Source: a virus. From it: a DNA stretch of 64,000 nt. Position numbers and translations under genes: made by a program. Below the pieces are notes generated by a model that saw only the letters and a program-made list of their open reading frames with translations, made no database searches and was not told the origin of the DNA. The DNA lies in IMG/VR virus record IMGVR_UViG_3300018414_000007, positions 17,107-81,106 of that record. One strand, written 5' to 3'. Shown in pieces: positions 3,985 to 55,900 of the stretch; the stretch's first letter is position 1, and each line of letters begins with the position of its first letter.

Positions 3985-4515
3985 TTATATATCTTCACTA
4001 TCTGCAAGTGACAACTCATGTCCACCTTTAGTTGCACCTACATTCTTTTCTTTACTTAATTCTTCTTGTATAATTTTAAATGTCTTAAATATCTTTTCAG
4101 TACCTACAGACATTTTATCTATCTTATCAAAGTTATCTAAATCATATTCAGTATCTCTGAGGAACTTAGTTCTTTTATCTAGAGTTTCTAACCACTGTCT
4201 TAAGTGTCTTTTAGCTGGAGTATCTACAAGTTTCATAATCATTTCTATAGCAGGATTAATCATCTTAAGATTCTTATTATAGAAATCTTTATCTTTAAGA
4301 TAATCTTTACCTACTATAGAAACTCTTTCTTCTAGTTCTAAATTATAGAATCTAGAATCTAAATCAAAGCAAGCTACTATAAACCACATAACATCAGATG
4401 ACTTAGTTTTAAACTCTTTCTGTATAGTCTTAAACTCTTCAATCTTTTTAAACTCTGGATACATTTCCCAGAAGTTATACTCAGGATCTATAATATTAAA
4501 TACTTTGTCTGTCAT
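3985..4515 (-). CDS. Hypothetical protein upstream of TerL (candidate small terminase)
   Basis: 176-aa helical ORF in the packaging operon. Function inferred from position only. Confidence 0.55.
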   Translation of the reverse strand: MTDKVFNIIDPEYNFWEMYPEFKKIEEFKTIQKEFKTKSSDVMWFIVACFDLDSRFYNLELEERVSIVGKDYLKDKDFYNKNLKMINPAIEMIMKLVDTPAKRHLRQWLETLDKRTKFLRDTEYDLDNFDKIDKMSVGTEKIFKTFKIIQEELSKEKNVGATKGGHELSLADSEDI

Positions 4516-7784: not shown

Positions 7785-8161
7785 TATACTAGTCTACAAG
7801 GTATATCCAAATCTTCACTAAGGTAATAAGCAGCACATACTCTATGATATCCATCTGCAATAATTAAAGTATCATTAGAACCTCTTACTAACAGTACTGG
7901 TGATAACTTCTTACCTTTATTTACCTTCTTTATATTCTCTTTAACATGTTGATTAGAACTAGGTAGCAATTCTAGCTTACTAGCTCTTAGTATATCTTTA
8001 GCTTTCTTCTTTATAGTTCTAGTAGTCTTAAGATACTCAACAATTACATCTACAACTTCAGATTCTTTAATTAACTCTAAATAATCTGCAGCAGCAGGAT
8101 AATCATGTTCCTCTGGGTCTTTTAACCAAATACTTTTATTCCTTTTTAATTCCTTTGACAT
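7784..8161 (-). CDS. Stand-alone ParB/Srx-like domain protein
   Basis: LSPVLLVR...LIIADGYHRVCAA is the ParB/Srx GxHR motif. Confidence 0.75.
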   Translation of the reverse strand: MSKELKRNKSIWLKDPEEHDYPAAADYLELIKESEVVDVIVEYLKTTRTIKKKAKDILRASKLELLPSSNQHVKENIKKVNKGKKLSPVLLVRGSNDTLIIADGYHRVCAAYYLSEDLDIPCRLV

Positions 8162-8493: not shown

Positions 8494-8871
8494 TTATTTT
8501 ATTATATTTTTATTATATTCTAATAGAACTGTTTTATCTATTATATTAATCATCCAGTCTAATAACTCAAATGGTTCTACACATTCTTCTATAAATAAAA
8601 CTCTAGGCAGTATACCATTTAATCTATCTTCTTTCCACATTTTAATATGAAGATTAATACTACCCTTTGTTTTTAAAAGTGTTCTTAGTAAATTAGGATG
8701 TTTAGTAGGCTTTAACTTTCCTTGTGAATCAAATAAAAAGAAAGCCTTTTTACCATCTATTCCTTTAGTATCATACTCTATATCTCTATCTAATCTACCA
8801 TCAAAATCAAATGTGTGTCTAAACTTTAAATACCAATTAAAGTCTCTATTGAAGTTATCACTATACTTCAT
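8494..8871 (-). CDS. Hypothetical protein
   Basis: 125-aa ORF, first gene downstream of the promoter at 9000. Confidence 0.65.
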   Translation of the reverse strand: MKYSDNFNRDFNWYLKFRHTFDFDGRLDRDIEYDTKGIDGKKAFFLFDSQGKLKPTKHPNLLRTLLKTKGSINLHIKMWKEDRLNGILPRVLFIEECVEPFELLDWMINIIDKTVLLEYNKNIIK

Positions 8872-8999
8872 AAAAAATTTTAAAAATTTTAAAAAAATGT
8901 TTGTGGTTAATCTTTATATCTACCCTATTATCATTACCCCATCCTAACATTTGACCTGATTATACCGGGTTGTTTCTTATTAGGTGGAAGTGATTTCTG

Positions 9000-9031
9000 C
9001 AAATATAAGAATTCTTTTTTACAATTGCAAA
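9000..9031 (-). promoter_or_regulatory. Bacteroidota primary-sigma promoter at the strand switch
   Basis: TTTG-N20-TATATTTG on the minus strand. Confidence 0.72.
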
Positions 9032-9066
9032 TTAATCAATTAAATAATTACTCAAACATTAAACAC

Positions 9067-9384
9067 ATGAACAAGATTAAATCTTTATTTGTTTTCAACA
9101 AGGTTGATAACAATGGTAATGCAAGGACAGTTGCTTGCATCAATGGTGATACATTCATCAATGCTAAATGGTTAGCAAGTCAAACTGAATTAACTATTGC
9201 TTCATTACCACTATTGGTAGGTAGTAGCATAGAAGTTGAATACTTTGTTGAAGGTGAAGTATTGCAAGCTGCAGAAGGTGATATAGCTGAAAAGCTTTGC
9301 ACCAAGAATAATACTATAGTTAAAAGCTTTAGTGTTGAGTACAGCATTGCACTTACAGTTGCTAAAATGTATAAAGCTGCATAA
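9067..9384 (+). CDS. Early hypothetical protein (MNKIKSLF..., 105 aa)
   Basis: ATG at 9067 follows the recurrent AATTAATCAA...TTACTCAAAC leader. Confidence 0.7.
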   Translation: MNKIKSLFVFNKVDNNGNARTVACINGDTFINAKWLASQTELTIASLPLLVGSSIEVEYFVEGEVLQAAEGDIAEKLCTKNNTIVKSFSVEYSIALTVAKMYKAA

Positions 9385-9399
9385 TGATGCAATTAACAT

Positions 9400-9432
9400 T
9401 AGGAATAAGTGTCATAGTGATGCTTATTCCTA
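9400..9432 (+). other. 15-bp hairpin (processing or termination site)
   Basis: TAGGAATAAGTGTCA-TAG-TGATGCTTATTCCTA just after a stop codon. Confidence 0.55.
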
Positions 9433-9502
9433 TTATACTTGCAATCAAGGATGAGAGAAAAGACAAACAGTCTAAATGGTATAAAGAGAATAGATGATTA
9501 AA

Positions 9503-9610
9503 TAAACTAAAGGTAAGCATAAAGGTTAAAGTTAGCTCTGCACTAAAGTAGCTAATTAGGTATCTAACTGCTGGTATTCTCGATGAATACTATTGCTTAT
9601 CTTTAGTTTA
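9503..9610 (+). ncRNA. Stem-closed multibranch RNA candidate
   Basis: 17-bp TAAACTAAAGGTAAGCA/TGCTTATCTTTAGTTTA closing stem; internal TTAGCT/AGCTAA and TGGTATTC/GAATACTA hairpins. Confidence 0.5.
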
Positions 9611-9710
9611 ATATCTTATGTAAAAGAGTGTTAATTGAGTACTCTCTATCTCTCAGCACTATTTCTCACTAATCAACTTATCAGTTAACTTACACTAATT
9701 CATTATTATT

Positions 9711-10004
9711 ATGGCTAATCAAGAGTTTAATCCTTCTGAAAATAGTATAATATTACTATCAGTTTTAAAGTATATTACAGGTGAAGTTGTTCAAATAAAT
9801 AGAACAAATAGAACAATTTACCTTAGTAATAACACTCATTGGAATGCTCATACATTTCATCAAAACGTTCAATTATTAAGAATGTTTATGAATAGAGAAA
9901 TATCTATTGACCCAACTATACAATTAATGCAAAATGCAGTAAAGTCAACAATAGATGCTATGAAAAAGCAATGTCCAATGAAAGTTATATCTTTAATAAA
10001 ATAA
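9711..10004 (+). CDS. Hypothetical protein
   Basis: 97-aa ORF with ATG start. Confidence 0.6.
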   Translation: MANQEFNPSENSIILLSVLKYITGEVVQINRTNRTIYLSNNTHWNAHTFHQNVQLLRMFMNREISIDPTIQLMQNAVKSTIDAMKKQCPMKVISLIK

Positions 10005-10159
10005 ATATATTACTTCCTAATGGTAAATACAAAGGACAATCTGTTTCTTATGTATATTCAATTCATCCAAGCTATATTAAATGGTATTTTGACCATGTTA
10101 AAGAGCTTAATGAATTCATTGAATTGCAAAGAAAATACGACAGTAAACAAGGTGATTAA
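9971..10159 (+). CDS. Small protein with GKYKG motif (DUF3820/ExoX C-terminal-like)
   Basis: LPNGKYKGQSVSYV...PSYIKWY pattern. Confidence 0.55.
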   Translation: MSNESYIFNKINILLPNGKYKGQSVSYVYSIHPSYIKWYFDHVKELNEFIELQRKYDSKQGD

Positions 10160-10208
10160 TTTCGCCTTTAACTAATCATTTTATTAACCTATTTTAATTA
10201 TCAGCATT

Positions 10209-10400
10209 ATGTACCTTTTATTACTCCTAATAATACTATCAGTAATACTCTTTTACTTAGTATTTAAGACAAACAAGATTAAAAAGTCTTATCAATATAA
10301 TAATTATAAGATTGATAAGGCTAAGAATACACCTGTTTATACAAAGACTAAAGACCTTTGTAGAAGAGGAATGCATCATTCATTTAAGTTTAAATACTAA
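10209..10400 (+). CDS. Small membrane-anchored protein
   Basis: N-terminal hydrophobic helix followed by a basic tail. Confidence 0.5.
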   Translation: MYLLLLLIILSVILFYLVFKTNKIKKSYQYNNYKIDKAKNTPVYTKTKDLCRRGMHHSFKFKY

Positions 10401-10404
10401 ACTT

Positions 10405-10596
10405 ATGGCAAGACAAGAATTACATAAATGTTCTATATGTGGTAAAACATATGATATTCAAAAACATGAGTTTTGTCCTAAGTGTGGAGAAAATGAAAAA
10501 GAATGGAAAAAAACACATTCAATGCTTAGTAATTTGAGTAATAACTTCATTGATGAAATGGAGTCTTTTCATGGATTTCAAGAAGTATTTGATTAA
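10405..10596 (+). CDS. Zn-ribbon protein
   Basis: MARQELHKCSICGK...FCPKCG from ATG at 10405. Confidence 0.6.
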   Translation: MARQELHKCSICGKTYDIQKHEFCPKCGENEKEWKKTHSMLSNLSNNFIDEMESFHGFQEVFD

Positions 10597-10632
10597 AATA
10601 CTACAAAGAACTTTATAAATTACATTCAGATT

Positions 10633-10852
10633 TTTCAATTACTACTGGTAGTAAGTATAATTGAAATTAGAGAGAGTAGTTTATATTGAATAGGATTCTA
10701 AAGTTGATTATACAGTCTTAAGTAGACTTAGACTACAAACTTCTTGCCTATTATTTAAATGCATAACACGATAAAGAGGAATAATAAACTATCTAGTTAA
10801 TAACCAATTGCAACAGGTGAAAACTAAAAGGATGTGATAGCAGCCTCTTTAT
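10633..10852 (+). ncRNA. Three consecutive structured elements
   Basis: Hairpin 10633-10666; AATAGG/CCTATT-closed element 10689-10752; ATAAAGAGG/CCTCTTTAT-closed element 10771-10852 with nested CTATC/GATAG and TAGTT/AACTA helices. Confidence 0.45.
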
Positions 10853-10882
10853 TAAATTAAATTGAAATCAAATTAAATAACT

Positions 10883-11020
10883 ATGATACCTACAGTAATA
10901 CTTTTAATTATTCTATTTGCATTGTTAATCAATATCTGTACAAATACAGATTGGAAACAAGAGAATGAAGATTTAATAACTATTTGGAAATGGTTATTTA
11001 AATCAAAAATATTGAAATAG
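10883..11020 (+). CDS. Small membrane protein (45 aa)
   Basis: Read by hand: MIPTVILLIILFALLINIC..., with an A-rich leader. Confidence 0.5.
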   Translation: MIPTVILLIILFALLINICTNTDWKQENEDLITIWKWLFKSKILK

Positions 11021-11085
11021 TATAGATAACAATGCTTCTCAATTAGGCACGGTTAATTGAGTATACTATTTTAAAGAACTTCATT

Positions 11086-11267
11086 TAACTCTTCAAACTT
11101 GTACAAAGGAGTTATCTTATAGAAGCAGAGATTAGTTGCAAATAATCTTTGCAGTACAAGTGTGGTGCACATCATCAAAACGAGAAAGAAAAGATCATTT
11201 AAAAAAGACTATTATGTAGAAAACGGCATGAAGAGCCCTTAATAGTCGAAAACTTAGCTTGTGTGCA
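11086..11267 (+). ncRNA. Candidate pseudoknotted RNA
   Basis: Stem TAACTCTT/AGGAGTTA whose loop ACTTGTAC pairs with GTACAAGT (11154-11161); further stems 11125-11152, 11166-11267 and 11207-11247. Confidence 0.5.
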
Positions 11268-11313
11268 GAGCTATTTTATTAATTAATCAAACAAATTACT
11301 CAAACTTAAAACT

Positions 11314-11451
11314 ATGCAAATAGAAATCTTTAACCATATTAGTCTAGGACAGGTATGGAATGTGAAACAGCGTGGAACTAAAATGTATTGTAGAACTGTT
11401 TCAGATAATATACAATACAAAATTAATCTAATTGATTTAATTGATTACTAA
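11314..11451 (+). CDS. Small hypothetical protein (45 aa)
   Basis: Read by hand: MQIEIFNHISLGQVW..., after the conserved AATTAATCAA leader. Confidence 0.55.
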   Translation: MQIEIFNHISLGQVWNVKQRGTKMYCRTVSDNIQYKINLIDLIDY

Positions 11452-11452
11452 T

Positions 11453-11671
11453 ATGTGGTATTTTGTTTTAATATGTATAGTAATATTTCAAGGATATATT
11501 ATTTATAAACAATACAGAATAATTCAGTTAGATAATAAATTACATGAATTAGCGGATCAATGTGCTGAATTAGCAGAATTATTCAGACCAAAAGATAACT
11601 CATTACCAATAAAATCAACAGGATATTATAAAACTGATGAAAATGGTAAATTAATATTTGTTGAACATTAA
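11453..11671 (+). CDS. Small membrane-anchored protein
   Basis: MWYFVLICIVIFQGYII N-terminal transmembrane segment. Confidence 0.55.
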   Translation: MWYFVLICIVIFQGYIIYKQYRIIQLDNKLHELADQCAELAELFRPKDNSLPIKSTGYYKTDENGKLIFVEH

Positions 11672-11676
11672 AATAT

Positions 11677-11755
11677 TAAGGGTAATAGCATCGTTCTTTT
11701 CCATTTTGCGTTTTTGTGAACTTTTATTTAACATCTAAAAAGTCTATTACCCTTA
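11677..11755 (+). ncRNA. Stem-closed small RNA candidate
   Basis: Perfect 12-bp TAAGGGTAATAG/CTATTACCCTTA stem enclosing a pyrimidine-rich loop. Confidence 0.45.
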
Positions 11756-11771
11756 TTTAAAACTTAAAATT

Positions 11772-11957
11772 ATGGTATCAATAACAGTATTAACAATAGG
11801 ATTTTTATTCTTTCTATCCTATATATATTTAATGACAACTCCTACACCAAGAAAACATTGTGATAGATGTGGTAGAGAGTTAAAAGAAAGACATTATGGA
11901 AATATCTATTATTGGATATGTCCTATTCATGGTATAAAAGAAACTAAAGTTAAATAA
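11772..11957 (+). CDS. Membrane-anchored Zn-ribbon protein
   Basis: Transmembrane helix followed by CDRC...CPIH. Confidence 0.55.
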   Translation: MVSITVLTIGFLFFLSYIYLMTTPTPRKHCDRCGRELKERHYGNIYYWICPIHGIKETKVK

Positions 11958-11958
11958 T

Positions 11959-12150
11959 ATGAAATGGTTTAAAGCAATAACAACAATTTTAATACTTATA
12001 TGTATTATGGTTGGAATCAATTGGTTTGTTATATCCATTAATAGTATTAAGCGAGGTATCAATAAACCAAGAATTGATACAGTATTAACTATAAGAACTA
12101 TTAGACATTATAGAGATACTGATACAGTAATATTAAAACATTTAAATTAA
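11959..12150 (+). CDS. Small membrane protein
   Basis: N-terminal transmembrane helix; operon packing. Confidence 0.5.
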   Translation: MKWFKAITTILILICIMVGINWFVISINSIKRGINKPRIDTVLTIRTIRHYRDTDTVILKHLN

Positions 12151-12155
12151 ATTTA

Positions 12156-12359
12156 ATGGCATCAAAACAAGAACAATTAGAATTAGACTTTCTAAAAGTG
12201 AAAGTTAGAATTGTAAGAGATATTACTGATTGTTCTACATTTGAACAATTAGATGAATATATTCATAATGTAAACAAAATATTTGATATAACCTCATTCT
12301 TAGACAAAAATAAAGCGAGTCATAAAGAGATTGGTAATGTTGAAATATTAGAAGAATAG
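12156..12359 (+). CDS. Hypothetical protein
   Basis: 67-aa ORF. Confidence 0.55.
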   Translation: MASKQEQLELDFLKVKVRIVRDITDCSTFEQLDEYIHNVNKIFDITSFLDKNKASHKEIGNVEILEE

Positions 12360-12392
12360 TAAAGATCCAGGGAAATACTGTATGGAAACAGT

Positions 12393-12480
12393 ATAATAGT
12401 AGGTGAAGGTTTCACCTTAAATGAAGTTATCTTGAAGAGACTAACGACTCTTTAAAGAGAATTAATCAGCCTACTATTAT
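12393..12480 (+). ncRNA. Stem-closed multibranch RNA candidate
   Basis: ATAATAGTAGG/CCTACTATTAT 11-bp closing stem enclosing three small hairpins. Confidence 0.45.
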
Positions 12481-12520
12481 TATTTTAATTAATCAAATTT
12501 ACTACTCTAAACAATAAACT

Positions 12521-12718
12521 ATGACAGATGAAATAGTACAATCAAATGTAAGAGCATATAATGTAGTCCAACAAGGATATAGTGATGATGCTTTAAAGGT
12601 AAGAGAGTCATTAGGTAAAGACTTTACTGATATTCTATTTAGGAAGTTGTGTACTTTATCTAAATTAGAAAGAATTGAAGTAATAACTAGTCTTTCTAAA
12701 GTTATTAACAAAATTTAA
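12521..12718 (+). CDS. Hypothetical protein
   Basis: 65-aa ORF preceded by the conserved leader. Confidence 0.6.
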   Translation: MTDEIVQSNVRAYNVVQQGYSDDALKVRESLGKDFTDILFRKLCTLSKLERIEVITSLSKVINKI

Positions 12719-12728
12719 CCAATTTATT

Positions 12729-12902
12729 ATGAAATATAAATATTTTATATATAATATAAATGGTACTTTATTATATGAATCAATGTGCTCATATAAAGAA
12801 CCATTAGCATTAAAATTAGCTGAAAAGCATTGTTTAATATCACAATTAAATGGTAATAAAGGTGCATATAGCAAATTAATGCCAGAAGGAATTGCAGTTT
12901 AG
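12729..12902 (+). CDS. Hypothetical protein (57 aa)
   Basis: Read by hand: MKYKYFIYNINGTLLYES...GIAV*. Confidence 0.5.
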   Translation: MKYKYFIYNINGTLLYESMCSYKEPLALKLAEKHCLISQLNGNKGAYSKLMPEGIAV

Positions 12903-12934
12903 TTAGGAGTAATTACTGTAATTTGATTAGTTTT

Positions 12935-13029
12935 TAATATAGTGGGAGACAGTGGTGCAAAGCCATTCTTGCCAAGGTTGAAACCCAGTCTTGGTTAGTA
13001 GTATAACAGTTATTACGCCTACTATATTA
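12935..13029 (+). ncRNA. Circularly permuted, anticodon-less tRNA-like RNA
   Basis: Order: anticodon-stem 3' strand, variable loop AGAC, T-arm AGTGG-TGCAAAG-CCATT, acceptor 3' CTTGCCA, linker hairpin, acceptor 5' TGGTTAG, TA, D-arm GTAT-AACAGTTA-TTAC, G, anticodon-stem 5' strand. Confidence 0.7.
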
Positions 13030-13193
13030 TTTTATTTAGCTTACCTAACAATAATTATTATGAAACCAGAAAATTTTGCGATAGTGAATGGTGTAATAGT
13101 TTCAGATGAAGATGCAATCATTTGGGATTTTCAATAAATAGGATATAAGTATATATCCTGCATTTGTAAGCGTATTGGATGTATAAAATATCC

Positions 13194-13349
13194 CCTAAGA
13201 TGATGGAACATAAACAGAACTATACGTATTCCCCAAGAATATAGTCCTTCTGTTAGGCAAACATGAGCATTTAGATTTAATGCTTGGGAACTATAGGAAA
13301 ATCTCGACGATATAACTATCCCTTGAAGGTTCGTACCCTTCTCTTAGGA
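13194..13349 (+). tRNA. Expanded (156 nt) tRNA-Leu-like gene with inserts in D-loop, anticodon loop and variable arm
   Basis: Acceptor CCTAAGA/TCTTAGG plus A73; T-arm GAAGG-TTCGTAC-CCTTC; D-stem ATG/CAT with GGC; anticodon stem AGCAT/ATGCT; variable stem GGGA/TCCC. Confidence 0.7.
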
Positions 13350-13423
13350 CTATTCTATATGATAGGATATAGAGTATGAAGTTAACACAAATTATCTACA
13401 AACAAATTTAAATTTAAAACAAA

Positions 13424-13954
13424 ATGAATAAAAGATTTTTAACAGGCTTTGCTATGATGCATTTAGCCGCTGATGCTGCTTCTCAAGGTGGAAATAGCAA
13501 TGAATTAACTAAAGAACAAGTTAAACAAATCATTGAATCTCGTAAAATTGTTACAGAACCTGGTCAATATCAGGCTAAAGTAACTAATGTTACTCTTTAT
13601 ACAAGAGAAGATGATACATTAGTACAAATCAATAACTTTGATTTGATGACTCCTTGGAATCTATCTGAAGCAAAGCGTTTGTATAAAGAAGGAGAGTATA
13701 CTGAAGCTGCAAGCCAAAAGCTCTCTAACAATTCAAGAGTAGGTACTGATTTCTGCCCTAAGAAAGGAGATATTGTAAATGTTGTATTAGATATAATTGC
13801 TACTAAGAATCAACCAAATGGTGTTCTTTTGATTAAAGCAATTATGCCTCTTGAAACAAAGAAAGCATCTGCTGTATCTTTTGGTTTTGATGATGAAACT
13901 GAAGAAGTTAATTTAGCAACTGAAAAAGCAGTTGAAGAACCAGCATTAACTTAA
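13424..13954 (+). CDS. Hypothetical protein (acidic C-terminus)
   Basis: 176-aa ORF with a strong A-rich initiation region, followed by a hairpin. Confidence 0.7.
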   Translation: MNKRFLTGFAMMHLAADAASQGGNSNELTKEQVKQIIESRKIVTEPGQYQAKVTNVTLYTREDDTLVQINNFDLMTPWNLSEAKRLYKEGEYTEAASQKLSNNSRVGTDFCPKKGDIVNVVLDIIATKNQPNGVLLIKAIMPLETKKASAVSFGFDDETEEVNLATEKAVEEPALT

Positions 13955-13966
13955 TTGTAAACCTAA

Positions 13967-13994
13967 TAGTAGTAGAGCCTATCCTCTACTACTA
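13967..13994 (+). terminator. 11-bp hairpin after the gene
   Basis: TAGTAGTAGAG-CCTATC-CTCTACTACTA; weak U-tract. Confidence 0.45.
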
Positions 13995-14009
13995 ATTTAA
14001 ATTAAAACT

Positions 14010-14192
14010 ATGAAATCAAAAGCATTTGGAATAACATTTTTAATATTGTTATTCTTGTTACATCTCATACCACTTATTATATATATTATATCAAGAAATA
14101 TCAATACTCTTAGTATGTATGCTGGTCTTTTAGTACTTGATATAATTATAATAACAATTTGCGATATGAATGGTTTATTTACTGATTATTAA
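14010..14192 (+). CDS. Small membrane protein (2 TM)
   Basis: Two hydrophobic segments. Confidence 0.55.
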   Translation: MKSKAFGITFLILLFLLHLIPLIIYIISRNINTLSMYAGLLVLDIIIITICDMNGLFTDY

Positions 14193-14203
14193 CCTTAATT
14201 AAT

Positions 14204-14680
14204 ATGAAATTAAAACAAAAATCTTGGTATGCTTGGTATTATCAGAACTTTTATGGTGAAGATTTACCAGTATCTTTATGTGTATTCTTTTGGAAAGAAT
14301 TACTAGCAATAATACTATTTCCTATTACATGGCTTAATGTTATATTTAATTACAAAAAACAAGACTACGATAGACTTCCTATTGGATTAACTATTGCATT
14401 ACATTGTGTAGGAATAGGAGTTGGGTTATTAATTACAATTCCATTACATCTTAAAAATCCAATACATTTACTTTGGGTAGGTATTCCCGGTTTAATTTTA
14501 TTAGCAATATTAATTGGTATCGTAGTAGGAGTAGGTTTTGTATTATATCAATTAGTTGGATTTATATCTAGATTATTTTATAAATATAAACCTGCTTATA
14601 AAGAACCTAAACCCAGTTGGTTTAAAGAAGGTATAAAAGCATTCTTTGGTAAATATTGTCCTAAAATAGATTGGTTATGA
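14204..14680 (+). CDS. Membrane protein (about 3 TM)
   Basis: SWYAWYY...LPVSLCVFFWK, hydrophobic helices, C-terminal KYCPKIDW. Confidence 0.7.
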   Translation: MKLKQKSWYAWYYQNFYGEDLPVSLCVFFWKELLAIILFPITWLNVIFNYKKQDYDRLPIGLTIALHCVGIGVGLLITIPLHLKNPIHLLWVGIPGLILLAILIGIVVGVGFVLYQLVGFISRLFYKYKPAYKEPKPSWFKEGIKAFFGKYCPKIDWL

Positions 14681-14832
14681 TTTATAGACTTATTATAATA
14701 CTTTCAGTATTATTCTTTGCTATGCACAATAAAATAACTATTGGAGAATTTTATATTATCTGGTGTATATTATTAGTAGATCTAATAAAAATAATGATGA
14801 ATATGGAAATAATGATTATTTCTATTAAATAA
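14677..14832 (+). CDS. Small membrane protein (51 aa)
   Basis: Read by hand; ATGA overlap with the upstream stop. Confidence 0.45.
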   Translation: MIYRLIIILSVLFFAMHNKITIGEFYIIWCILLVDLIKIMMNMEIMIISIK

Positions 14833-14837
14833 GGTAA

Positions 14838-14909
14838 GGTCCTGTAGTTCAACGGATAGAACGGGAGATTTCTAATCTCTAGATAATGGTTCGATTCCAT
14901 TCAGGACTA
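14838..14909 (+). tRNA. tRNA-Arg(TCT)
   Basis: Canonical cloverleaf GGTCCTG-TA-GTTC AACGGATA GAAC-G-GGAGA TT TCT AA TCTCT-AGAT-AATGG TTCGATT CCATT-CAGGACT-A. Confidence 0.95.
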
Positions 14910-14930
14910 CAATTAATCAAATTAAATAAT

Positions 14931-15164
14931 ATAAAAATAGAATTAGAACAAACAACAAACAATACTGTACCAATTAAAATATCAGTTACAATAGAAACTC
15001 AAGAAGAATTTGATAGTATATCTAATTTTACAGGATGTGTTATTGTAAATGATTTAATAGATACTATTGAAAGACCTGCTGTAAAACAATTTTTATCAGT
15101 AAAGTCAAGAAAAACTATTATTGCAAACTTTTTACAAGGATTTTGGAAAAAACTAGTGTTATGA
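14931..15164 (+). CDS. Hypothetical protein, probable ATA start
   Basis: The tracked ATG (14886) lies in the tRNA T-arm. The in-frame ATA at 14931 follows the AATTAATCAA leader. Confidence 0.45.
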   Translation: MKIELEQTTNNTVPIKISVTIETQEEFDSISNFTGCVIVNDLIDTIERPAVKQFLSVKSRKTIIANFLQGFWKKLVL

Positions 15165-15997
15165 AAAAGTATAAATTAATTAAAGAATATCCGGGTTCAC
15201 CTAAACTGGGAACTATAGTAGAACATGAAACTAAATGTGTATGTCCTAATTATAAAGTTAGTATAAATCAAGAAACTTGGATATTTGCAGAATCTAGTAT
15301 ACAGAATTTCCCTGAATTTTGGAAAGAGATAATAGGAAAAGAATATGAAATATTATCTTTTAAAATTAATGAGGATATATATAGTCATGTAATTATACTA
15401 AATAAAACTCGAAAAGGATTTATGAATACATTAAACGGTTTATATTTATATGAAGAACAACTATTAACCAATAATGACTATAAAATATATTCAGTAAAAC
15501 GTTTATCAGATGGAGAAGTGTTTACTATTGGTGATGGTATTAAATCTACTGAATGGTCTAAAAAAGATGATCAAGATATAATTACAAATATATGCATTTG
15601 TACTGAAGATCATAGTAAAGTATTTGGAAATTTAAAACCAAATAAAATAATTTTACAAACAGAAATAACTTGGCAATGTAATTTAGAATCTGCAATTAAA
15701 GTTAAAAAACCATTATTTACTACAGAAGATGGAGTAGATATATTTGAAGGTGACACATTTAGTATAGTTTATTCTGATTTTTCTACTCATTACAATGTAA
15801 CCTTTAAAAATCTTATTAAACCATTTTGTAAGGTATTTTCAACAAAAGAAAAAGCAGAAGAATATATTTTATTAAATAAACCTGTTTTAACTTATAATGA
15901 TATCATTAATATTACTCAATTTATAACAGCAGTAGAAAGAGCGTGTGTATTAATTCAAACTGAAAAATTACTAAAACAAAAACTTAATATTAAATAA
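15161..15997 (+). CDS. Hypothetical protein (MKKYKLIKEYPGSP...)
   Basis: ATG at 15161 overlaps the upstream stop; contains SVKRLSDGEVFTIGD and LFTTEDGVDIFEGD segments. Confidence 0.7.
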   Translation: MKKYKLIKEYPGSPKLGTIVEHETKCVCPNYKVSINQETWIFAESSIQNFPEFWKEIIGKEYEILSFKINEDIYSHVIILNKTRKGFMNTLNGLYLYEEQLLTNNDYKIYSVKRLSDGEVFTIGDGIKSTEWSKKDDQDIITNICICTEDHSKVFGNLKPNKIILQTEITWQCNLESAIKVKKPLFTTEDGVDIFEGDTFSIVYSDFSTHYNVTFKNLIKPFCKVFSTKEKAEEYILLNKPVLTYNDIINITQFITAVERACVLIQTEKLLKQKLNIK

Positions 15998-15998
15998 C

Positions 15999-16376
15999 AT
16001 GAATGCAACAATAACAACTGGAATAATTTTATTAGCTACATTAATAGCTATTAATTTAACTTGTATAATAATCAATCATTTTGTAATTAAAGCGGAAATA
16101 AATGATATATTAGACAAGGATTTAAGAATAGATTTACTTCAATCTCTTCAACCTATTTATAAAATATTCTTTAAAAGGGTAATAATCTCAGCAAATACAG
16201 ATTATTTTAGTTGTAAAGAAGATTATATAAGATATTCAAGTTATTTAAATATTGAAGGATTGCAAGAAGATTTAAATAATTTTTATCATAAATCCAGAAG
16301 AAAAGAACATACAGATTATGAGTTATTTAATGAATTTAAAGAAAAGAAAGTTTTAGAAGTAGAAGAAATGTTTTGA
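15999..16376 (+). CDS. Membrane-anchored hypothetical protein
   Basis: N-terminal transmembrane segment. Confidence 0.6.
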   Translation: MNATITTGIILLATLIAINLTCIIINHFVIKAEINDILDKDLRIDLLQSLQPIYKIFFKRVIISANTDYFSCKEDYIRYSSYLNIEGLQEDLNNFYHKSRRKEHTDYELFNEFKEKKVLEVEEMF

Positions 16377-16403
16377 TTTTTCAATTATTTTATCGTATTT
16401 TTG
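16372..16403 (+). promoter_or_regulatory. Bacteroidota primary-sigma promoter
   Basis: TTTG-N20-TATTTTTG. Confidence 0.7.
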
Positions 16404-25880: not shown

Positions 25881-25951
25881 TAAGAGTAGTGATAGCCTTG
25901 AGTTCGCTTTAGTTACTAATTTATTGGTAGCCTCCGGCTATCCTACTTTTA
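25881..25951 (+). ncRNA. Structured element upstream of the GATase start
   Basis: TAAGAGTAG-T-GATAGCC/GGCTATC-CTACTTTTA closing stem; inner GTTACTAA/TTGGTAGC hairpin. Confidence 0.5.
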
Positions 25952-46566: not shown

Positions 46567-46597
46567 ACTAGCTGGAGTAATAAATATTCCAGCTAGT
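46567..46597 (+). terminator. 13-bp hairpin
   Basis: ACTAGCTGGAGTA-ATAAA-TATTCCAGCTAGT. Confidence 0.55.
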
Positions 46598-46940: not shown

Positions 46941-49900
46941 TTACTTGTTGTCAATAGCTTGTTTAGTAGCTGAATAAACCTTTTCAGGTATATTTACTAT
47001 AGGCAATGCTTTAGCAAGTTTAACTGCTATCTTACTATGACCTTTATGTATTCCTGTTTTATAAGTACCTTTACCTTCAATTGTTTGAGCTACTGCTTGA
47101 CCTAAATCTGCAAAGTCCATTAAAGTTTTAAATGCTGGTATGGGCTCTCTTATTACTGCTTGGAATGAGTAAGGATTGTAGAAGAAAGTTAAATCTCCAG
47201 ATACTCTAGTAGTAGAATTTAATAAGAATGTTAATGCAGCTTTCTCTTTATCATCATCATGATACAATCCATGAAGCATTGCTTTCATAGCTAATGCAGC
47301 TCCCCAAAGAACAGGAATAAAAGCTAACTCATAAGCATTCATTCTTAAGTTTCTATTATCTATACTATCAGCATTTTCATCAGTAGTAAATGCCTTGTAC
47401 ATATCTTTGATTAAAGGAATAACGGCTAAGTGACTTAGTTTATAACTTAAGTATCTACCTTTCTGTATATCTCCAGATAGAGTTTGATACTCTTTACCAA
47501 ATCTTACAGAGATAGATCTTGGAAGCCACTTCCTCATAGTAAGAAGGTTTCTCAATATGTACTTCTGAGAAGCCATAGTAGCATCACCATAATCACCATG
47601 TACAGCTGTAACTACAGATTGAATATGAGAACTCATCTCTAATCTCTTTCTATCATCATCGTAAGGATTAGGACCAAATTGATCTGTTTTCCATTCACCT
47701 TTACCATCAAATGCATCAAATAAATCATGTTCAACTCCAGACAAATCTGTTACTTTCTCTTTCATAAGTACAGATATACCTGTTTGATGCTGAATAAAAT
47801 CTTCAGTTTTATTTACAAGTACATAAGGAGTAGCTTCAGCTAATGGATTATTAATACTTGGTAATTTAAACTTACCAAACTTAATCTCTCCTAACTGCTG
47901 TCTCATATCAAAATATTCAGCTAATGCTTTAACTTTAGAATGAGCTTCAGTCCAAGGTAAACTAGCTTCTAACATATAACCAAAGGATTTAATATTCTCT
48001 CTTTCACCATATGCTTTTCTATCACCTGCATAGATTGTATTAGATAATACTCCCCATATAACACGACCAATAGAAGATACAGGATTTAAACCTAATGCTT
48101 TTAATCTAGTATAAGCAGATACAGTATCAACAACTTTACTACCTGTTAAAGCTCTAGTTTCTGTAACTGGTTCTCCTTTAGCATTAAGTGTAGTTCTTTT
48201 GATTGTAGCATCTGGATTAGCTCCAGTATGTTCTACACCTCTATCATACAAGAAAGATTCTAACATATAGTTAGATTGAGATGTAATATTAGGAGCTCTA
48301 CCTGGACTTTCATCTAAGATAGGAGTACCATCATCATCTGTAACTATTTGATCTGAAGTATTAACTTTATAAGCAGGTTGTTTCTGAGTTAATTCTTTCA
48401 TCATTTGTAAATAAGGTTCTATCTCATTTTTATGATTAAGCATAAACTCTTGTAATTTAGCAGCTAATAATACTCTACCTAAGTCATATGATTTATCTGC
48501 TGGGTTCATAACATTACTCATCATATAAACAGGTATAGACTCATTAGGAAGACCATTTATATCTAAGCTATTAGTGTTAACAGTAGATTCTAATTTAGTT
48601 GTTACAGAGTCTGTAGCAAGCTGTTGGATAGCTTTAAATGCACCTTTGAAGTCTCCTTCTAACATTCTATCCATATAGTCTTTCTTTACTTCGGGTATAT
48701 AGTTAGATTCATTACCATAAAGTTTAGCCATAGATCTAAATTGAGAGTCTAGTTCATTATAAACTTTCATCTCTACAGAATCTTCACCAAATGCTTTTAA
48801 AGCAGTATATCTAGGATCTATCCACTTACTATTAGGAGTACTAGTAACATAGTCTTTATACTTATTTCTTTCTTCTTTAGATATGTAAGAACCTTTCTTA
48901 ACCTTAGCAATATATTGATCTGGATTATGAGAAGCAGTCCATTGTTTAAACTTAGCATAATCATGAGTACCTTCTTTATTCCAATCAGGTAATTCAGATT
49001 TTAACTGCTCAACATCAGCATTATATCTTTCTTTATCCTCTTCTGTAATCTTTACATCCCAATCTGTTCTATCATACTTCTTTTTAGTCCAGAACTCATG
49101 TTTATATTTATTAAGAAGTCTACCTGTAGGATTACCATCTTTATCTAATTGTAATACTGCATTGTAGTTTTTATATTTCTTTTGAAACTCTTTAAATACA
49201 GGAACTATTTTATCTTGGTATTTAGAAAAATCATCATTAGTTTTTAACTCAGCTTTTCTAATTACTGTTTGCATAGCTTGTAATTTAGGACTACTAGAAT
49301 ACATAGCAGATTCAAATGTAGATTCCATATTACCTACATCTTTGTTAGGTTGATTAAATACTTTACCTAAATCAACATTAGGATTAATATCAGTACCAAA
49401 GTAATAAGATAAAGTCTCTAATTTCTTTTTATCTAATTCATTATTTAAATCAATTGATTTTCTAACAATATCATCTAAGTTTTTATTTTCTTCAGCAAAA
49501 GCTTCATTATAAGTAATATAGTTTCTTATATTAGCATACCAAGATAAATATCTTTTAGTTTCATCTATATCATAAGCAGACATTCTTCCAGGTCTATTCA
49601 TAATAGTTTCAATAGAAGCTAACTTATCTTTAGCTTGAGCAGTAATTATACTAACTGTATTTTCAGCTTTAATCTGTTTGATTTGATTATTTATATCTTC
49701 TACTTTAGCTTGTAATCCAGGATTCTTTGCATAATTAGGATTAGATTGAAACTTGTTTCTAATATCATATAATCTCTTTAAAGACTTTTCAATAATTCTT
49801 TCTTCTTTAGACTTAGGCATAACTGGTTTAGGATCTATATCATATAAAGGAGTTCCACCTTTAGTAAATACTCTAAGAACTCTTTTACCATTTTCCCAAG

Positions 49901-52900
49901 CTAAATCTATTTTAATATTATTATATTTAGAATTCTTTTCCATAGCAGATTTAATCCTATCAAAATGAGGAGCTGTTAGTGGTTTACCATCATATAAATG
50001 ATACTTATTTAAGAACTCAGTTTTGGCATCTTTAGGAGCTAAATCATTCAATGAATCTGGATTTGTTAAAAGTTCTGAGAAACCCTCTTCAAATACCATA
50101 TTACTTGGTATAGGAAACTCACTAAACATCTTGGCCATTTCTGGATTTCCATAACCATTAAGGTTTTTACCAGCTCCATTATAAGCAACTAAAAAGTCTT
50201 TATCAGGATGTTGATTAGCATATTCATAAAGCTTTTGTATTTGAGATACTATTCTTTCTCTAGACACACTAGGATGTTTATCTTTAGTTAAATCCTTAGT
50301 TACAATAGCATAGGATTGTCCTTGTGGACCTTCTGCTTGACCATACTTAGCACCTGCAAATCTAGATGCAAATAAAGCAGCTCCCATACCATGTCTACCT
50401 TGAGTATTACTACCAAATACAAATACTTGATTAGGTTCTAATTTAGTAATTTGTCCTTCATAAGTTTTTACTTGTGGTGTATTAGGAGTTTCTTCTTTAG
50501 TTTCTTCAACTGATTTCTCTCTACCACCTAAATCTAAAGTAGTATTATATAATGCATCATAGTCATTTTTATAAGATTCATTTAATCCAAGAAGATTAGC
50601 TACAGCTTTCCATAATTTATCCCAGAAGTTGTTATCTTTTAACTTAGCTACAAAATTCATATCTGTTAATCCAGCTACAAACTCATGTATATTAGTTAGT
50701 GGATAAAATTCTGATTTATTATCCATAAACCACATCTTATCTTCATCAGATACTTGTTGTCCATTTCTGAGTTTCTCAGTAATATCTTTAAACTTTTGTA
50801 ATCCTTCTTGATCTGCAATTCTGTTATACTGATTAAATAATATTTTAATCTTATCTACAGATTTCTTATCTTCTGGAGACAACTTGTCATAATTATTTAT
50901 TTTGTATGCTGTAATGGCATGAATCATCTCATGAAGTATAGTCTTACTAATAGAGTTAATAGGATCTGTTGATCTATTTAATGCATTATCAATATTAATT
51001 GATATTGTATTATTAACATATGATCCAGCAACTCCTTCTCTAGATAAATTTGTATCTATCTTTAGATTAGGAAAGTTAACTAATACTCTCTTTAAATCAT
51101 TAGCAATATTAGCAAACTCCTTATTAGGACCATTAGCTATTGTAGTTAATGTAGATTCAGGATTATTATTATCTAAATTAAAGTGTTTAGTTAAGAAATT
51201 CTTATCTACAATTTGTACAGCTTTATCTGACTTAGTTAAATTATCATCTTGAGACTTATCTTCTTCTATCCTATTAGTGATTTCTCCTGGAATAGGAAGA
51301 TTAGCTTGATTATTTTTAAAGATACTATATTGACCTTCTTTAGCTGAAGCATTATATTCATCTATACCATCAGCTCCAAGTAAATCTATTCTACTATAAG
51401 AGCTTCCTAAAGGAGTAGACTTACTTATTTTATAAAGCATAAAGTCTTTAGCTTCTCTATCATATACACTCATATAAGTAGGATATGTAAGATTACCATA
51501 ACCATCTGGTACAAGATAACTACTTCTACCATCCATAGTAAATCCTTCTAATCTTTTATAATCATGTATATCCTTACTCTTTGGATCAAATGCAGAAGCT
51601 TTACTAGGATTATGTTGAAAGAATTGTTCTATAGCATTAGCTAATACATTAACTTGAGGGTCTCTAAGATTCTTATCTATTTCATGTAATTTATCACTAA
51701 ATCCATGCTCTTCTAATATATCATAAGGAATGAACTTAGCAATAGAACTAGGTCCTTGCTTAGCTCCAGTAAGTACAAAATAATTTACTAAATCTTTAGC
51801 AAGTTGTTTTTCTTCCTCTGTACCTTTATGATACATTCTATAGTAAGATAACATTGCTTCACTAGTATCACTAGTATTGGCTGCTGGTGTATTTAAAGCT
51901 TCTAATCTAATAGGATCAGATGTGCCTTTACCTCTTCTTACAAGAAGTCTCTCACTCAGCATATTTTTTTTACCTGCGGGAGTTTGAGTATAAGCTTCCC
52001 ATCTATTACCCAATGCTTGTGAACCAAATAGTAATCTATTTCTTTCTACATTAACATCTTCTATACCTAATAGATTGCTATGACTATATATGTAAGATTT
52101 GAAAGAATCATACATACTCTTTAAGTCCTTAGCATTGATTTCAGATCTATCAGCTTTACCCATTTCTTGAAGTACACTCTGAACATTAGATATGTAATCT
52201 CCAGTTTCATATGGAAGTATGTTAGAACCTATACCAAGAGCTTTATAAAGAACATCTGTAGCTTTACTAATAGTATTGTTTTGGAATAAATTCTCTGCAT
52301 TAATAATATCAGAAGTGTACTTAACAATATCAATATTATTAGCTTTAACTTGTAAGTCTACAAATCTAGTACCTAATCCATTAGTATCAACATTAATAGC
52401 ATTTTGTAGCATTCTAATAGACTTAGCCATATCCTTAATTTTAAGGAACTGATCTAAAATAGCTATTTGATTTTCATTAGTAGGATTTTTTAATTCCTCT
52501 TTTAATTCATCTATTGAGAATATATATTTAGAACTATTGTCTACTCCACCAGAAATGTATCCATGTAAACTTTCATCTTCTTTATTAGTTGTTGGATATT
52601 TTTCTATCTTAAGTTTTTGTAGAACTTCTAACTGTCTTTGAGCATTTGACTTAAATACAGGATTAGTTATATCATTAGCATTACTTAGCTCATTTACATA
52701 ATCTCTAAGGATAGGTTGAGATAAGAAATAACCAATATGATTTTCATCAAATCCAGCTAATAGAATAGTACCAGCTACATCCATAGTTAATGGATTAATA
52801 TTTAAATAACCAAGTAATTGTTCTTTAGCATTATCTACTGAAGCAGATTGTAAATATTGTACTACAGTAGAAGGAGATTTGTTTTCAATAAATCCTTTAC

Positions 52901-55900
52901 CATATAACTTATTACCTCTAACTATCTTATTGTCAATTTTAAAATCAATTGATTTATCTGTTGGTAAAGCTAATTTAGCATCTTGAGCAGCTCTAATAAA
53001 GGTACTAAACAAAGAGAATATACCCCTACCTGCTATACCATCATTATTGTTTTTATGAAACTCATTTTGTTTGATAGTACTAAAGAAGTGATTATCTGAA
53101 TCTAAATTCTGAATATACTTAATTTCATCAGCTAGTTTAGGTAAATCACCATAACCATTAGGTTCAAGAATCTTAGGAAGTAGATCTACATCCTTATATC
53201 TGTCTTCATAGTATTGTATAATAGAGTTATCTATTTGTTCATCACTAAATTTGGATATATCTGTATCTACAAGATTACCTTTTAAATCTCCATTCTCATC
53301 TACAGAAGTACCAGATTTAAAGTTACCTTCAATCTTAGAGAATTTATTACCATCAAATTTATAATGGTATCTGTACATAAATAATTTATCTACGTCAAAG
53401 TCAGAACCCATCTGAGCTACAATTTCAGCAGGAACAATAGCTAAATCTCCTACAGTCTTAGGTAAGAAACCTTTAACTTTAAAACTCATCATAGAGTTAT
53501 AACCTTGTGTAGGAATTCTAATACCTATAGTAGTAAGTAAGTTCTCAGGTAACCTATCTGTATCTAATGTACCATCTTCTTTTAAGAATTTAGTCATATC
53601 AATAAGTTTACCATCTTTACCAGTAAACCAACTAGGTACTAATATTTCAGCTTGTAAAAGAACTGTACCATCTTCACTTTTTCTAATATAATTAAGTGTA
53701 GTATCATTTGGATTAACCCAAACAATACTATCTTTAGCTTGAGCATTCAATTGATCTAAAGTTCTTAATCTGCTAAATCCAGCAGAAGAACCTTGTATCT
53801 TACTAAATCCAGGAAGTTCAGATTTAATAACTCTATTAGTAAATAGACTATTTAGAATAGACTCTAATCTACTACTACTATTATTAAATCCTAAAGGTAT
53901 TTTAAATCTTTGTACACCATCTACAGTTTCAATCTGTAAACCATATACATCATTTACATTATAATTTCTACTACTAGCTTCTTCAATTAGAATCTTTTGT
54001 AATTTACTAAGGTCCTTAATCTTAACGCTACTACCATCTGTTTCAGCTCCTATATCTTTTAATAATCCTTTAAGAGCTCTATTCATCTTCTCTATATGAA
54101 GATTTTCATATATTTGTTTAGCATCTTTACCAGATACAGGTGAATCAAATAAATGTAATGTATGGTCATCATCAACATCAAGAAGAATAAGTTTTCTACC
54201 TTGAGTACCTTCATTTACAGTAGAGTGACTCTCTGGACTATGATAAGGTACTTCTTGTTGTATTCTAAATCCATCCCTATCTAATGTAATAGCATTCTTA
54301 GATAAGTCTAAATCATCTCTAATAACACCCTGACTAGATTCAGTTTGTACTATGTTACTAATAGGTAAACCTAATTTAACACCAGACTCATATACAGCTC
54401 TATCTACTTTAGCTGTTTCCATAGCTACTCTAAGCTTATCTATTTCTAAACCTTTAGTAAGGGCTGGAATTAATGGGAAAGAAGATGTCTTAATATAGTA
54501 CATTCTATCTATACCCATAGACTTATCTACCATAGTACCAGCATATACTGGTTTCATAGGTTGTAAGATTAAATCTATATCTGATTCATTAGAACCACCA
54601 TCTATTAATCTTTTACCTGCCGCTTCAAGTTCTGGAGTTAATTTACCATAAGCTTTCATAACAGCTAAATGTTCAGCAAGAGTAGTATATTCTTGAGCAT
54701 CTGCAGGATTCATATTTTTATAAGCTTCTGCTCTTTCTTTAATTACTTCTTGGTACTTATCAAATAGTTTAGAAGTATACTTTAAGTCTTTTAAGAATAC
54801 AGTAGTATATTGAGGTTTATCAAATAAACCATCTAATCCAGGAGCAACATCTTTAGCTAACCTTTTATTATAGTTAATCCAAGTCTTATCTATATTACTT
54901 TTACCATGTAATGCTGGATCCCCTGATATTAATTGAGTATAGTTGAAGTGAGATATAAACTGATTAATAGCATACTCAGCAGCAAATGCAGCTAACTTAT
55001 GTTTATCATCTGTAAAGTCTCCAAACTTCTTATCAAAAGATTTATCATAGAAAGGAGTATCTTTTTCTAATAGACCTAATTGTTTCCAGTATTTAACTTG
55101 TTTTCTAATTAAATCTTCAGTAAACTTCTGTATTTCTGGAGTAACAATTCTTTCTAATGTTTGAGCATCAATAGTTCTTAATCTGCCCTTTTCATCAAAT
55201 AGTTCTTTATTCTTATTTAAGAAATCATAAACAAGGAATTTTTCTCCCATACCAAAGTGATATCCTTGTAATAGTCTATCTTGAAATTCAGGATTTTCTT
55301 GTTGAGATTGTACTTCTCTTATTCTGTTATATTCTGCAATAAATGGTGCATATAAAGCTCTTTTAGCTGCATCATTCTTTACTACTAAAGAACCTTCATT
55401 CAGTTTAACTGGAATTTTAGGAACTTCAATAACCATAGGAGTAGGTTTATCTGAATAGATTGGAGCTAAGAACATACTATTAGGTCTACCTTCATTTTGA
55501 TAGTTAGATATTCTAGTAAATTCTTTCTCTTTATTATTCATCTTACTAAACACTTTATTAGGTTGATTAGTTTCATTACTTCCTAATGAGTCAAGTGGAT
55601 GTATAACAAAGTTTTGTCTAAATGCTGGATCAGATACATATTTATTACCCCAAATAGAATTAGCAGCATAAGTTGTTGTTAACTTATTGTTAATAAATTG
55701 TAAACCCTTCTCTTCATTCTTCAGTCTATTAAAGAATTTAGATACCATAGTATTATTAGTAATAGAGTATCTAGGTTTACCATCTCCTCCTACATATGAA
55801 GATTCATATAAGAAAGGATTAGTAATATTCTCTAATCTAGCTAATTGAGTTAAAGCTCTGGTTTCAGATATAAATGGATTGTTTAATTCTAATTTACTAT

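Follow-up and report, generated by a model that had tools for sequence, protein, structure and literature searches.

Stem-closed RNA modules between groups of tiny early genes in an uncultured crAss-like phage

The DNA considered here, called the window below, is a stretch of 64,000 nucleotides (nt) comprising bases 17107–81106 of the 81,106-nt IMG/VR record IMGVR_UViG_3300018414_000007 (estimated completeness 90%, G+C 24–33%). Its subject is a series of compact, helix-closed RNA modules situated between small genes at 9.0–14.0 kb of the window. The source is an uncultured freshwater crAss-like phage forming a lone lineage, for which blastn of phage records found no close relative. The window encodes a large terminase, a ribonucleotide reductase and a family-A DNA polymerase, whose closest phage relatives (~30% identity) belong to crAss-like phages. 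An open reading frame (ORF) of 5005 codons (46941–61958, − strand) carries one DFDVD motif, at residue 2853, and matches the virion RNA polymerase of phage phi14:2 (PDB 6VR4, residues 857–1405) with E 1.5e-35. This single reading frame is more than twice as long as phi14:2 gp66, and several virion proteins appear to be fused in it.

Genes were called as simple ATG ORFs of at least 35 codons. By these calls, a structural block on the − strand extends up to 8871, and a + strand block occupies 9067–46910. Between 9067 and 14009 the + strand carries tiny orphan genes in groups of one to four, tightly packed inside each group and set apart by spacers of 55–293 nt. Non-coding spacer makes up 31% of this part, and the longest stop-to-stop frame in the spacers does not exceed 39 codons. 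Pfam analysis of ten early proteins revealed zinc ribbons in two of them and nothing else; no candidate processing factor emerged from this set. For the 176-codon early protein, searches of 5.8 billion proteins and of IMG/VR revealed no homologue. A conserved neighbouring protein of 278/284 codons, used as an anchor, has best relatives 44–45% identical and is found at 38 IMG/VR loci. The 9.0–14.0 kb part is taken to be the early region by analogy with phi14:2, in which, according to the part of a preprint covered here, the injected virion polymerase transcribes the early genes (bioRxiv 10.1101/2020.03.07.982082).

The spacers of the early region are markedly enriched in long helices. A strong helix was defined as an uninterrupted helix of at least 9 base pairs (bp) with a score of at least 26 (GC 3, AU 2, GU 1) and a span of up to 135 nt. 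Eight early spacers (1563 nt) contain six such helices versus 0.22 expected, and none of 300 shuffles reached six. Within the early block, six strong helices fall in 1621 non-coding nt versus two in 3505 coding nt (binomial p 0.015); in the whole + strand block the numbers are eight in 3314 non-coding nt and 15 in 34755 coding nt, a 5.6-fold higher density outside genes. This count was used as the stronger test because it is free of chosen boundaries.

The thirteen spacers of the late genes (− strand) contain one strong helix, located in the 17 kb upstream of the window (G000:C1:10092-10123, record coordinates). Its stem measures 14 bp and its loop 4 nt, and it has a T tract. This is a textbook − strand terminator, and ordinary terminators are therefore in use for the late genes.

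Read on the − strand, just two of the six strong early helices keep the required score, and four of the six need G-U pairs. Folding energies on the + and − strands are −17.1 and −11.9 kcal/mol for 9400–9432, −36.2 and −28.5 for 9503–9610, −31.2 and −16.7 kcal/mol for 12935–13029, and −26.9 and −20.0 for 25881–25951. The + strand advantage of 5–15 kcal/mol is seen in these four elements, the others being about equal on both strands. Since most helices are lost on the − strand through their G-U pairs, and since the folds are asymmetric, the modules are sense-strand RNA structures. They are particular to the + strand block and unlike the ordinary terminator of this phage.

Folding was also compared with 200 dinucleotide shuffles per element. 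In coding controls, 15 early genes gave a mean z of −1.90, and 24 random 200-nt coding pieces gave −1.04 (standard deviation 0.88). The z-score of whole segments was dropped as the main test because these controls are negative too; coding sequence also beats its shuffles, and therefore only modules at z of about −4 or lower stand out. Among the early genes, 9711–10004 (z −4.1) and 11959–12150 (z −3.8) are strongly folded, versus a mean of −1.0 for later genes. It is possible that the entire early transcript is exceptionally rich in structure, or that shuffling removes a local A/T strand asymmetry.

The modules, all on the + strand, are taken here from left to right. The first is a 15-bp hairpin with two G-U pairs and a 3-nt loop (9400–9432; z −6.7, none of 200 shuffles as good). 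It begins 16 nt past the stop codon of a 105-codon gene and sits within a possible 37-codon ORF (9384–9497), given which it may not be intergenic. Module 9503–9610 begins 5 nt past a stop codon, and its 17-bp closing helix (one G-U pair, score 37) surrounds a three-way junction; z is −6.0 for the whole and −2.1 for the interior alone.

A long irregular hairpin of 10 + 3 + 9 + 4 bp occupies 10614–10685 (−20.0 kcal/mol, z −4.9, matched by none of 200 shuffles). The adjacent 10689–10752 is unsupported, with a closing helix of just 6 bp, z −1.0 (26 of 200 shuffles as good) and an interior at z +0.1. At 10771–10852 lies a weak module with a closing helix of 9–10 bp, an unstructured interior (z −0.45) and the next ATG 30 nt on; its z of −2.5 is inside the range of the coding background, above which it probably does not rise.

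The irregular hairpin 11012–11074 (13 + 9 bp, 13-nt one-sided internal loop; helix score 26, z −4.2, interior z −2.6) spans the stop codon 11018–11020 with its 5′ arm. Delimited as 11015–11071, it has a 10-bp closing helix (13 bp if begun at 11012) and z −3.0. An 8-bp helix closes two hairpins at 11097–11161 (−22.1 kcal/mol, z −4.8, 0 of 200 shuffles). Element 11166–11267, with a 7-bp closing helix, is unsupported as a fold (z −0.9, 35 of 200 shuffles as good; interior z −0.7).

Module 11677–11755 consists of a perfect 12-bp helix around an unstructured, U-rich interior of 55 nt (z −3.1; interior z +1.0) and begins 5 nt past a stop codon. Module 12393–12480 is closed by 12 bp, contains two hairpins and carries a T-rich tail (z −3.75, 0 of 200 shuffles; interior z −1.2). 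In 12935–13029 a 12-bp helix closes a four-way junction with seven G-U pairs (z −4.3; interior z −2.05); the helix is followed by a T-rich tail, and no tRNA was called there. A perfect 11-bp hairpin with a 6-nt loop (13967–13994; z −5.8) begins 12 nt past the stop codon of the 176-codon gene. Outside the early block, 11 nt past a stop codon, 25881–25951 forms a long irregular hairpin of 9 bp, a 1-nt bulge, 7 bp and an inner 3 + 8 bp (z −5.4; interior z −2.8).

Two structures of another type occupy the same kind of slot as the modules. One is a tRNA-Arg(UCU) gene (14838–14910, 69.8 bits), which begins 5 nt past a stop codon. The other belongs to a 286-nt spacer with three adjoining folds at 13139–13376 (z −3.1, −1.8 and −3.25), namely a hairpin domain (13139–13193), a tRNA-shaped cloverleaf (13194–13349) and a hairpin (13351–13376). 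The minimum-energy fold of 13194–13349 is a class-II-like cloverleaf: its acceptor-like stem has 7 bp, its variable arm is long, and its D region holds a large insertion. Next to the 3′ strand is a 5-bp stem that resembles a T arm and has a loop of 7 nt; the anticodon loop is not canonical. Neither ARAGORN at default settings nor Rfam at E up to 10 called it. Over 8800–15000, Rfam 15 at E up to 10 returned only the tRNA and one chance snoRNA match (E 6.2); at gathering thresholds the tRNA was likewise the sole match. ARAGORN, in default and introns-allowed modes, returned only the tRNA at 14838–14910; the scattered calls at a lowered threshold are regarded as spurious.

A preliminary description of this stretch had listed eleven stem-bounded elements, and all eleven lie where it placed them. 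Closing helices of mostly 9–17 bp had been claimed, and nine of the eleven have at least 9 bp; 10689–10752 and 11166–11267 fall short. The same two are at background in folding, as opposed to the core modules, and the list had overlooked 10614–10685 and 11097–11161. The placement between a stop codon and the next leader was correctly described, with the reservation noted for 9400–9432. Overall, the observation is largely real and was partly confirmed.

The modules keep a regular register with the genes. In nine of them the closing helix begins 0–33 nt past a stop codon, and the closing helices end 13–46 nt ahead of the next ATG. The distance from helix to ATG is 16 nt at 11755, 15 nt at 13994 and 13 nt at 46597. 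A gap of 13–16 nt leaves no room for a promoter, and at least these three modules must therefore be read through; at these sites read-through with processing fits better than termination with re-initiation.

Some of the stems are shared. Modules 12393–12480 and 12935–13029, which flank a two-gene module, have in common about 9 nt of each arm and the T-rich tail, and their interiors (64 and 71 nt) are unrelated. The hairpin 13967–13994 has the same type of stem and is its cargo-less form; 25881–25951 is a looser relative. A common TAGTAG/CCTACTA-like stem had been proposed for several elements, and it is partly borne out, best by the 12393/12935 pair. TAGTAG-type hexamers are about twofold over-represented genome-wide, and stem sharing is therefore modest evidence. 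TAGTAG...CTACTA pairs as a specific signal were rejected (17 versus 8 expected from hexamer counts). Arm sequence is also common to neighbouring modules, 9420–9428 with 9512–9520 and 12393–12404 with 13018–13029. Such arms permit alternative long-range pairing between adjacent modules, which in the case of 12393–12404 with 13018–13029 would enclose two genes. As DNA, the shared arms are short direct repeats on either side of a gene module.

The leaders of several early genes carry a bipartite motif consisting of AATTAATCAA, 3–7 nt, a TTACTC-type box, 8–9 nt and ATG. Copies are present on the + strand at 9030–9057, 11281–11305 and 12487–12512, with a partial copy at 14911–14920; the motif thus sits ahead of three early genes and directly after the tRNA-Arg, two of the full copies following elements 11166–11267 and 12393–12480. 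Five copies of the AATTAATCAA 10-mer are present in the 81-kb genome, all on the + strand and four of them in the early block, and relatives' loci L003, L007 and L034 carry it in similar leaders. The motif may be an early promoter or a translation leader.

The stem-closed architecture is also seen in distant relatives. In 32 non-redundant relative loci with 37.4 kb of + strand spacers, 35 strong helices were found versus 4.95 expected and 16 antisense; these divide into 18 simple hairpins, 3 intermediate forms and 14 helices with an interior of more than 30 nt. Compared with the 38 relatives' loci, the window's own spacers gave the tRNA as the sole match. In one distant relative (L012, 1–5200) the arrangement is repeated, with a hairpin immediately after the largest early gene. 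The same locus carries tRNA-Tyr and tRNA-Arg back to back (4324–4478), a possible third tRNA seen only at a lowered ARAGORN threshold (4241–4322) and canonical T-tract terminators near 2012, 3640 and 4880.

One stem recurs among the relatives as a family of six distinct versions, one copy per contig: L003 3428–3527, L007 755–853, L045 3161–3262, L048 1266–1354 and, on the − strand, L047 3924–4021 and L077 ~10720–10820. The family was gathered by two IMG/VR pattern scans, in which 6 of 23 and 7 of 24 hits were genuine, the remainder being without a partner arm. What is conserved is a helix of 18 bp interrupted by a one-base bulge, followed by an invariant internal loop and four further pairs (22 pairs in total). 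Identity is 80–100% in the 30-nt 5′ module and 76–100% in the 34-nt 3′ module versus 13–34%, the random level, in the interiors of 26–47 nt. The flanks differ, and near-identical stems adjoin replaced interiors and, in one place, a 75-nt insertion. Because the interiors cannot be aligned next to near-identical stems, they have been replaced and have not drifted. A common scaffold with differing interiors, as the preliminary description had it, is thus seen in the 12393/12935 pair and is far clearer in these relatives.

The next ATG lies 13–28 nt downstream of the family members. Pairing is kept in 98.5% of the cells of the family alignment; each of the six one-sided changes is accommodated by a G-U pair, and one double (compensatory) change is present. 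The L003 member has no Rfam match, and a covariance model of the scaffold found only the six training sequences among 38 sources and none in the window.

These observations are tentatively interpreted, at a probability somewhat short of even, as read-through intercistronic boundary elements for protection or processing of 3′ ends, some interiors of which would persist as small RNAs. In this model the injected virion RNA polymerase presumably transcribes the early region rightward as one or a few long transcripts, in which groups of one to four tiny genes are parted by compact sense-RNA modules, each with a long-range helix of 11–17 bp. The working part would be the closing helix, with the polymerase reading through the module. 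Once closed, the module could block 3′-to-5′ exonucleases and so protect the upstream cistrons; it could offer a double-stranded target to an endonuclease, host RNase III being one candidate; and it could keep the leader of the next gene, which is A/T-rich and unstructured and begins 13–46 nt on, free of pairing with the spacer. The modules would thus probably mark and protect the ends of early messages. The interior would be exchangeable cargo, which in about half of the modules is folded and probably persists as a stable small RNA, like the RNAs of phi14:2. A tRNA-Arg, present in one of the equivalent slots, must be cut out of its transcript.

Interiors that beat their shuffles are those of 9503, 11012, 12935, 25881 and an element at 19244 (z −2.05 to −2.8), with 12393 doing so weakly. 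Since only about one half of the interiors fold beyond their shuffles, the set of distinct small RNAs predicted in the preliminary description is plausible for some modules and not for all, and the interpretation given there is as a whole partly supported.

The RNase III part of that prediction invites comparison with phage T7, whose RNase III sites are long irregular hairpins. T7 and T3 early sites likewise are structured elements between early cistrons, have no T tracts and, when cut, leave a 3′ stem on the upstream message. The intercistronic placement is the same here, and a polycistronic transcript would be expected. The T7-type shape, a single irregular hairpin of about two helical turns, is found only in 10614–10685, 11012–11074 and 25881–25951, and nearly so in 9503–9610 with its 17 bp. 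Most modules differ in that a helix of 11–13 bp closes a multi-branch or open interior of 37–74 nt. The polymerase is also different, being a crAss-type virion enzyme and not that of the host. RNase III is a possible and reasonable candidate for three or four long irregular helices; its gene was not found in the phage genome. The targets of the enzyme include T7, T3 and lambda RNAs, with a minimum of 22 nt, according to the portion of PMC5371410 covered here.

Another parallel is phi14:2, which belongs to the same phage order, possesses a virion RNA polymerase of the same family and has an early rightward region with gene-free stretches between small genes. The covered part of the preprint reports abundant and persistent early non-coding RNAs at the g004–g005 and g005–g006 junctions (bioRxiv 10.1101/2020.03.07.982082). 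Stem-closed pieces are likewise present in phi14:2, at 4148–4265 and 8011–8111. Its gaps are blocks of 0.7–1.7 kb, unlike the string of 30–110-nt modules in the window, and expression has been shown for phi14:2 only. Between the window and the first 14 kb of phi14:2, blastn gave only scattered low-scoring AT-rich matches, and nhmmer gave none for the first three spacer queries.

Small structured RNAs with paired ends near tRNA genes are also known from the T4 tRNA cluster, where species 1 and 2 RNAs are stable, share a transcript with the tRNAs and are processed together with them. The modules of the window differ in having no CCA-like 3′ flank and in not being tRNA-like by Rfam or ARAGORN.

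Several points weigh against the boundary interpretation. The T-rich tails of 12393 and 12935 would allow termination of transcription instead. Whole-spacer z-scores (−1.5 to −4.9) are barely below the early genes' mean of −1.9, 10689 and 11166 are not above background, and the interiors of 10689, 10771, 11166 and 11677 are unstructured. The gene set consists of simple ATG calls, which limits the analysis. No relative is near enough for a covariation test of the window's own modules, and in the six-member family, whose stems show very little variation, the covariation test therefore fell short of significance (79 of 500 shuffles scored as high). A search of sequencing runs gave one DNA run, probably the source sample, and no RNA run. 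Transcription by the virion polymerase, read-through, cleavage and protection, the positions of RNA ends, and the stability and survival of small RNAs are all inferred.

Alternatively, the modules could be terminators or terminator–promoter cassettes similar to the PeSL stem-loops of T4-type phages, which would stop the polymerase and let a downstream promoter restart transcription, their conserved stems doubling as recombination points at which modules of small genes would be reshuffled. This is considered unlikely overall. There are likenesses in several respects. As described in the parts of PMC2839356 and PMC4122927 covered here, PeSL occupy the gaps between small orphan genes of a plastic early region, have stem sequence common to their copies and form conserved cassettes beside sequence swapped between related phages. 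The modules resemble PeSL (PMC4122927) in having a 5′ arm rich in A, a GG..CC core and a 3′ arm rich in T. The tails of 12393 and 12935 hold 7–8 T in 10 nt, these two modules share their arms around a two-gene module, the AATTAATCAA motif with its TTACTC-type box follows 11166–11267, 12393–12480 and the tRNA, and the conserved stems of the relatives are islands amid unrelated flanks and interiors.

A PeSL, as characterised in those sources, combines a small-loop terminator with a sigma-70-type promoter. In the window only 9400 and 13967 have small loops, the other interiors (37–74 nt, often folded) being unlike terminator loops. No host-type promoter comes after the modules: sigma-70-like sites number 129 versus 134 expected, the Bacteroidota-type −7 box (TAnnTTTG) is absent from the + strand spacers 8872–16395, and the distances of 13–16 nt to the next ATG at 11755, 13994 and 46597 are too short. 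Most modules are also without T tracts, in agreement with the preliminary description; just 9400–9432 and 13967–13994 pass a lenient terminator pattern, and these two match an intrinsic terminator (G/C-rich stem, 3–8-nt loop, T run) weakly, the one canonical terminator of the phage looking quite different. The terminator explanation keeps some weight for 12393 and 12935.

Similarly doubtful is the possibility that the modules are free-standing genes of trans-acting small RNAs (decoys, antisense or kissing-loop RNAs, tRNA mimics), in which the helix merely stabilises the product and the intergenic position is incidental. The folded interiors of 9503, 11012, 12935 and 25881 (z −2.1 to −2.8), the tRNA and tRNA-shaped fold in equivalent slots, the replacement of interiors between near-identical stems, and the abundance of the phi14:2 early non-coding RNAs throughout infection, as the covered part of the preprint has it, all agree with it. 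On the other hand, 13967–13994 combines the same stem with a mere 6-nt loop, so that the stem alone seems sufficient, and four interiors are unstructured. Complementarity of the interiors is at chance level both in the phage genome (best E 0.013) and in the relatives' flanks (up to 11 nt), and no Rfam family was matched at E up to 10.

A distinctly improbable variant would regard the modules as lineage-specific RNA cassettes composed of scaffold and cargo, the conserved helix being read by a dedicated phage or host factor and the interiors (25–75 nt) being swapped wholesale, as specificity determinants, between phages that are near-identical elsewhere. Aimed at host defences or at competing phages, the interiors could then work as decoys, as guides or as partners in kissing loops, and the early region would form an evolving library of them.

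Signals at the DNA level, either extruded hairpins or cruciforms acting as promoters of the virion polymerase or recombination sites similar to integron attC, are very improbable. Phage N4 reportedly uses hairpin promoters for its virion polymerase. According to the covered part of the preprint (bioRxiv 10.1101/2020.03.07.982082), the virion polymerase of phi14:2 transcribes DNA in vitro when this is single-stranded or denatured, and the early genes yielded no promoter motif. Tiny genes each with an imperfect inverted repeat, in which the stem matters and the centre varies, also resemble an array of integron cassettes. Against both versions, the G-U pairs needed by four of the six strongest helices become A-C mismatches on the template strand, and cruciform extrusion is unlikely with interiors of 37–74 nt. 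The attC comparison was rejected, as no tyrosine recombinase (PF00589) is encoded in the 81-kb record, no conserved core sites are shared by the element ends and the helices need RNA-type G-U pairs.

Chance inverted repeats in AT-rich spacers, chosen by eye, are hardly credible as a general explanation: 9-bp helices with G-U pairs are very common (412 in 39 kb), coding sequence too beats its shuffles and TAGTAG-type hexamers are frequent, but the excess and density of strong helices and their preference for the sense strand, both in the window and at 32 relatives' loci, rule chance out for the core set (9400, 9503, 10614, 11012, 11097, 11677, 12393, 12935, 13967 and 25881), and it stands for 10689 and 11166, which are at background.

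Few known viruses are as abundant as the crAss-like phages. In the literature covered, no such modules or transcript-end maps are described for these phages beyond the phi14:2 preprint, whose supplement with primer-extension sites lay outside the scope. That preprint, the sole transcript study found, describes in its covered part early non-coding RNAs that are abundant and whose function is unexplained, and it identifies no promoter motif for the early genes. A module that recurs in a lone lineage and in distant relatives offers a handle on how the early transcripts of crAss-like phages are organised, and it predicts the locations of early RNA ends and of stable small RNAs. The family of relatives with conserved stems and replaced interiors lends itself readily to experiments in a culturable phage. 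If the modules are merely protective hairpins, they would be an ordinary solution in an unusual shape; if their interiors act in trans, they would represent a new class of phage RNA.

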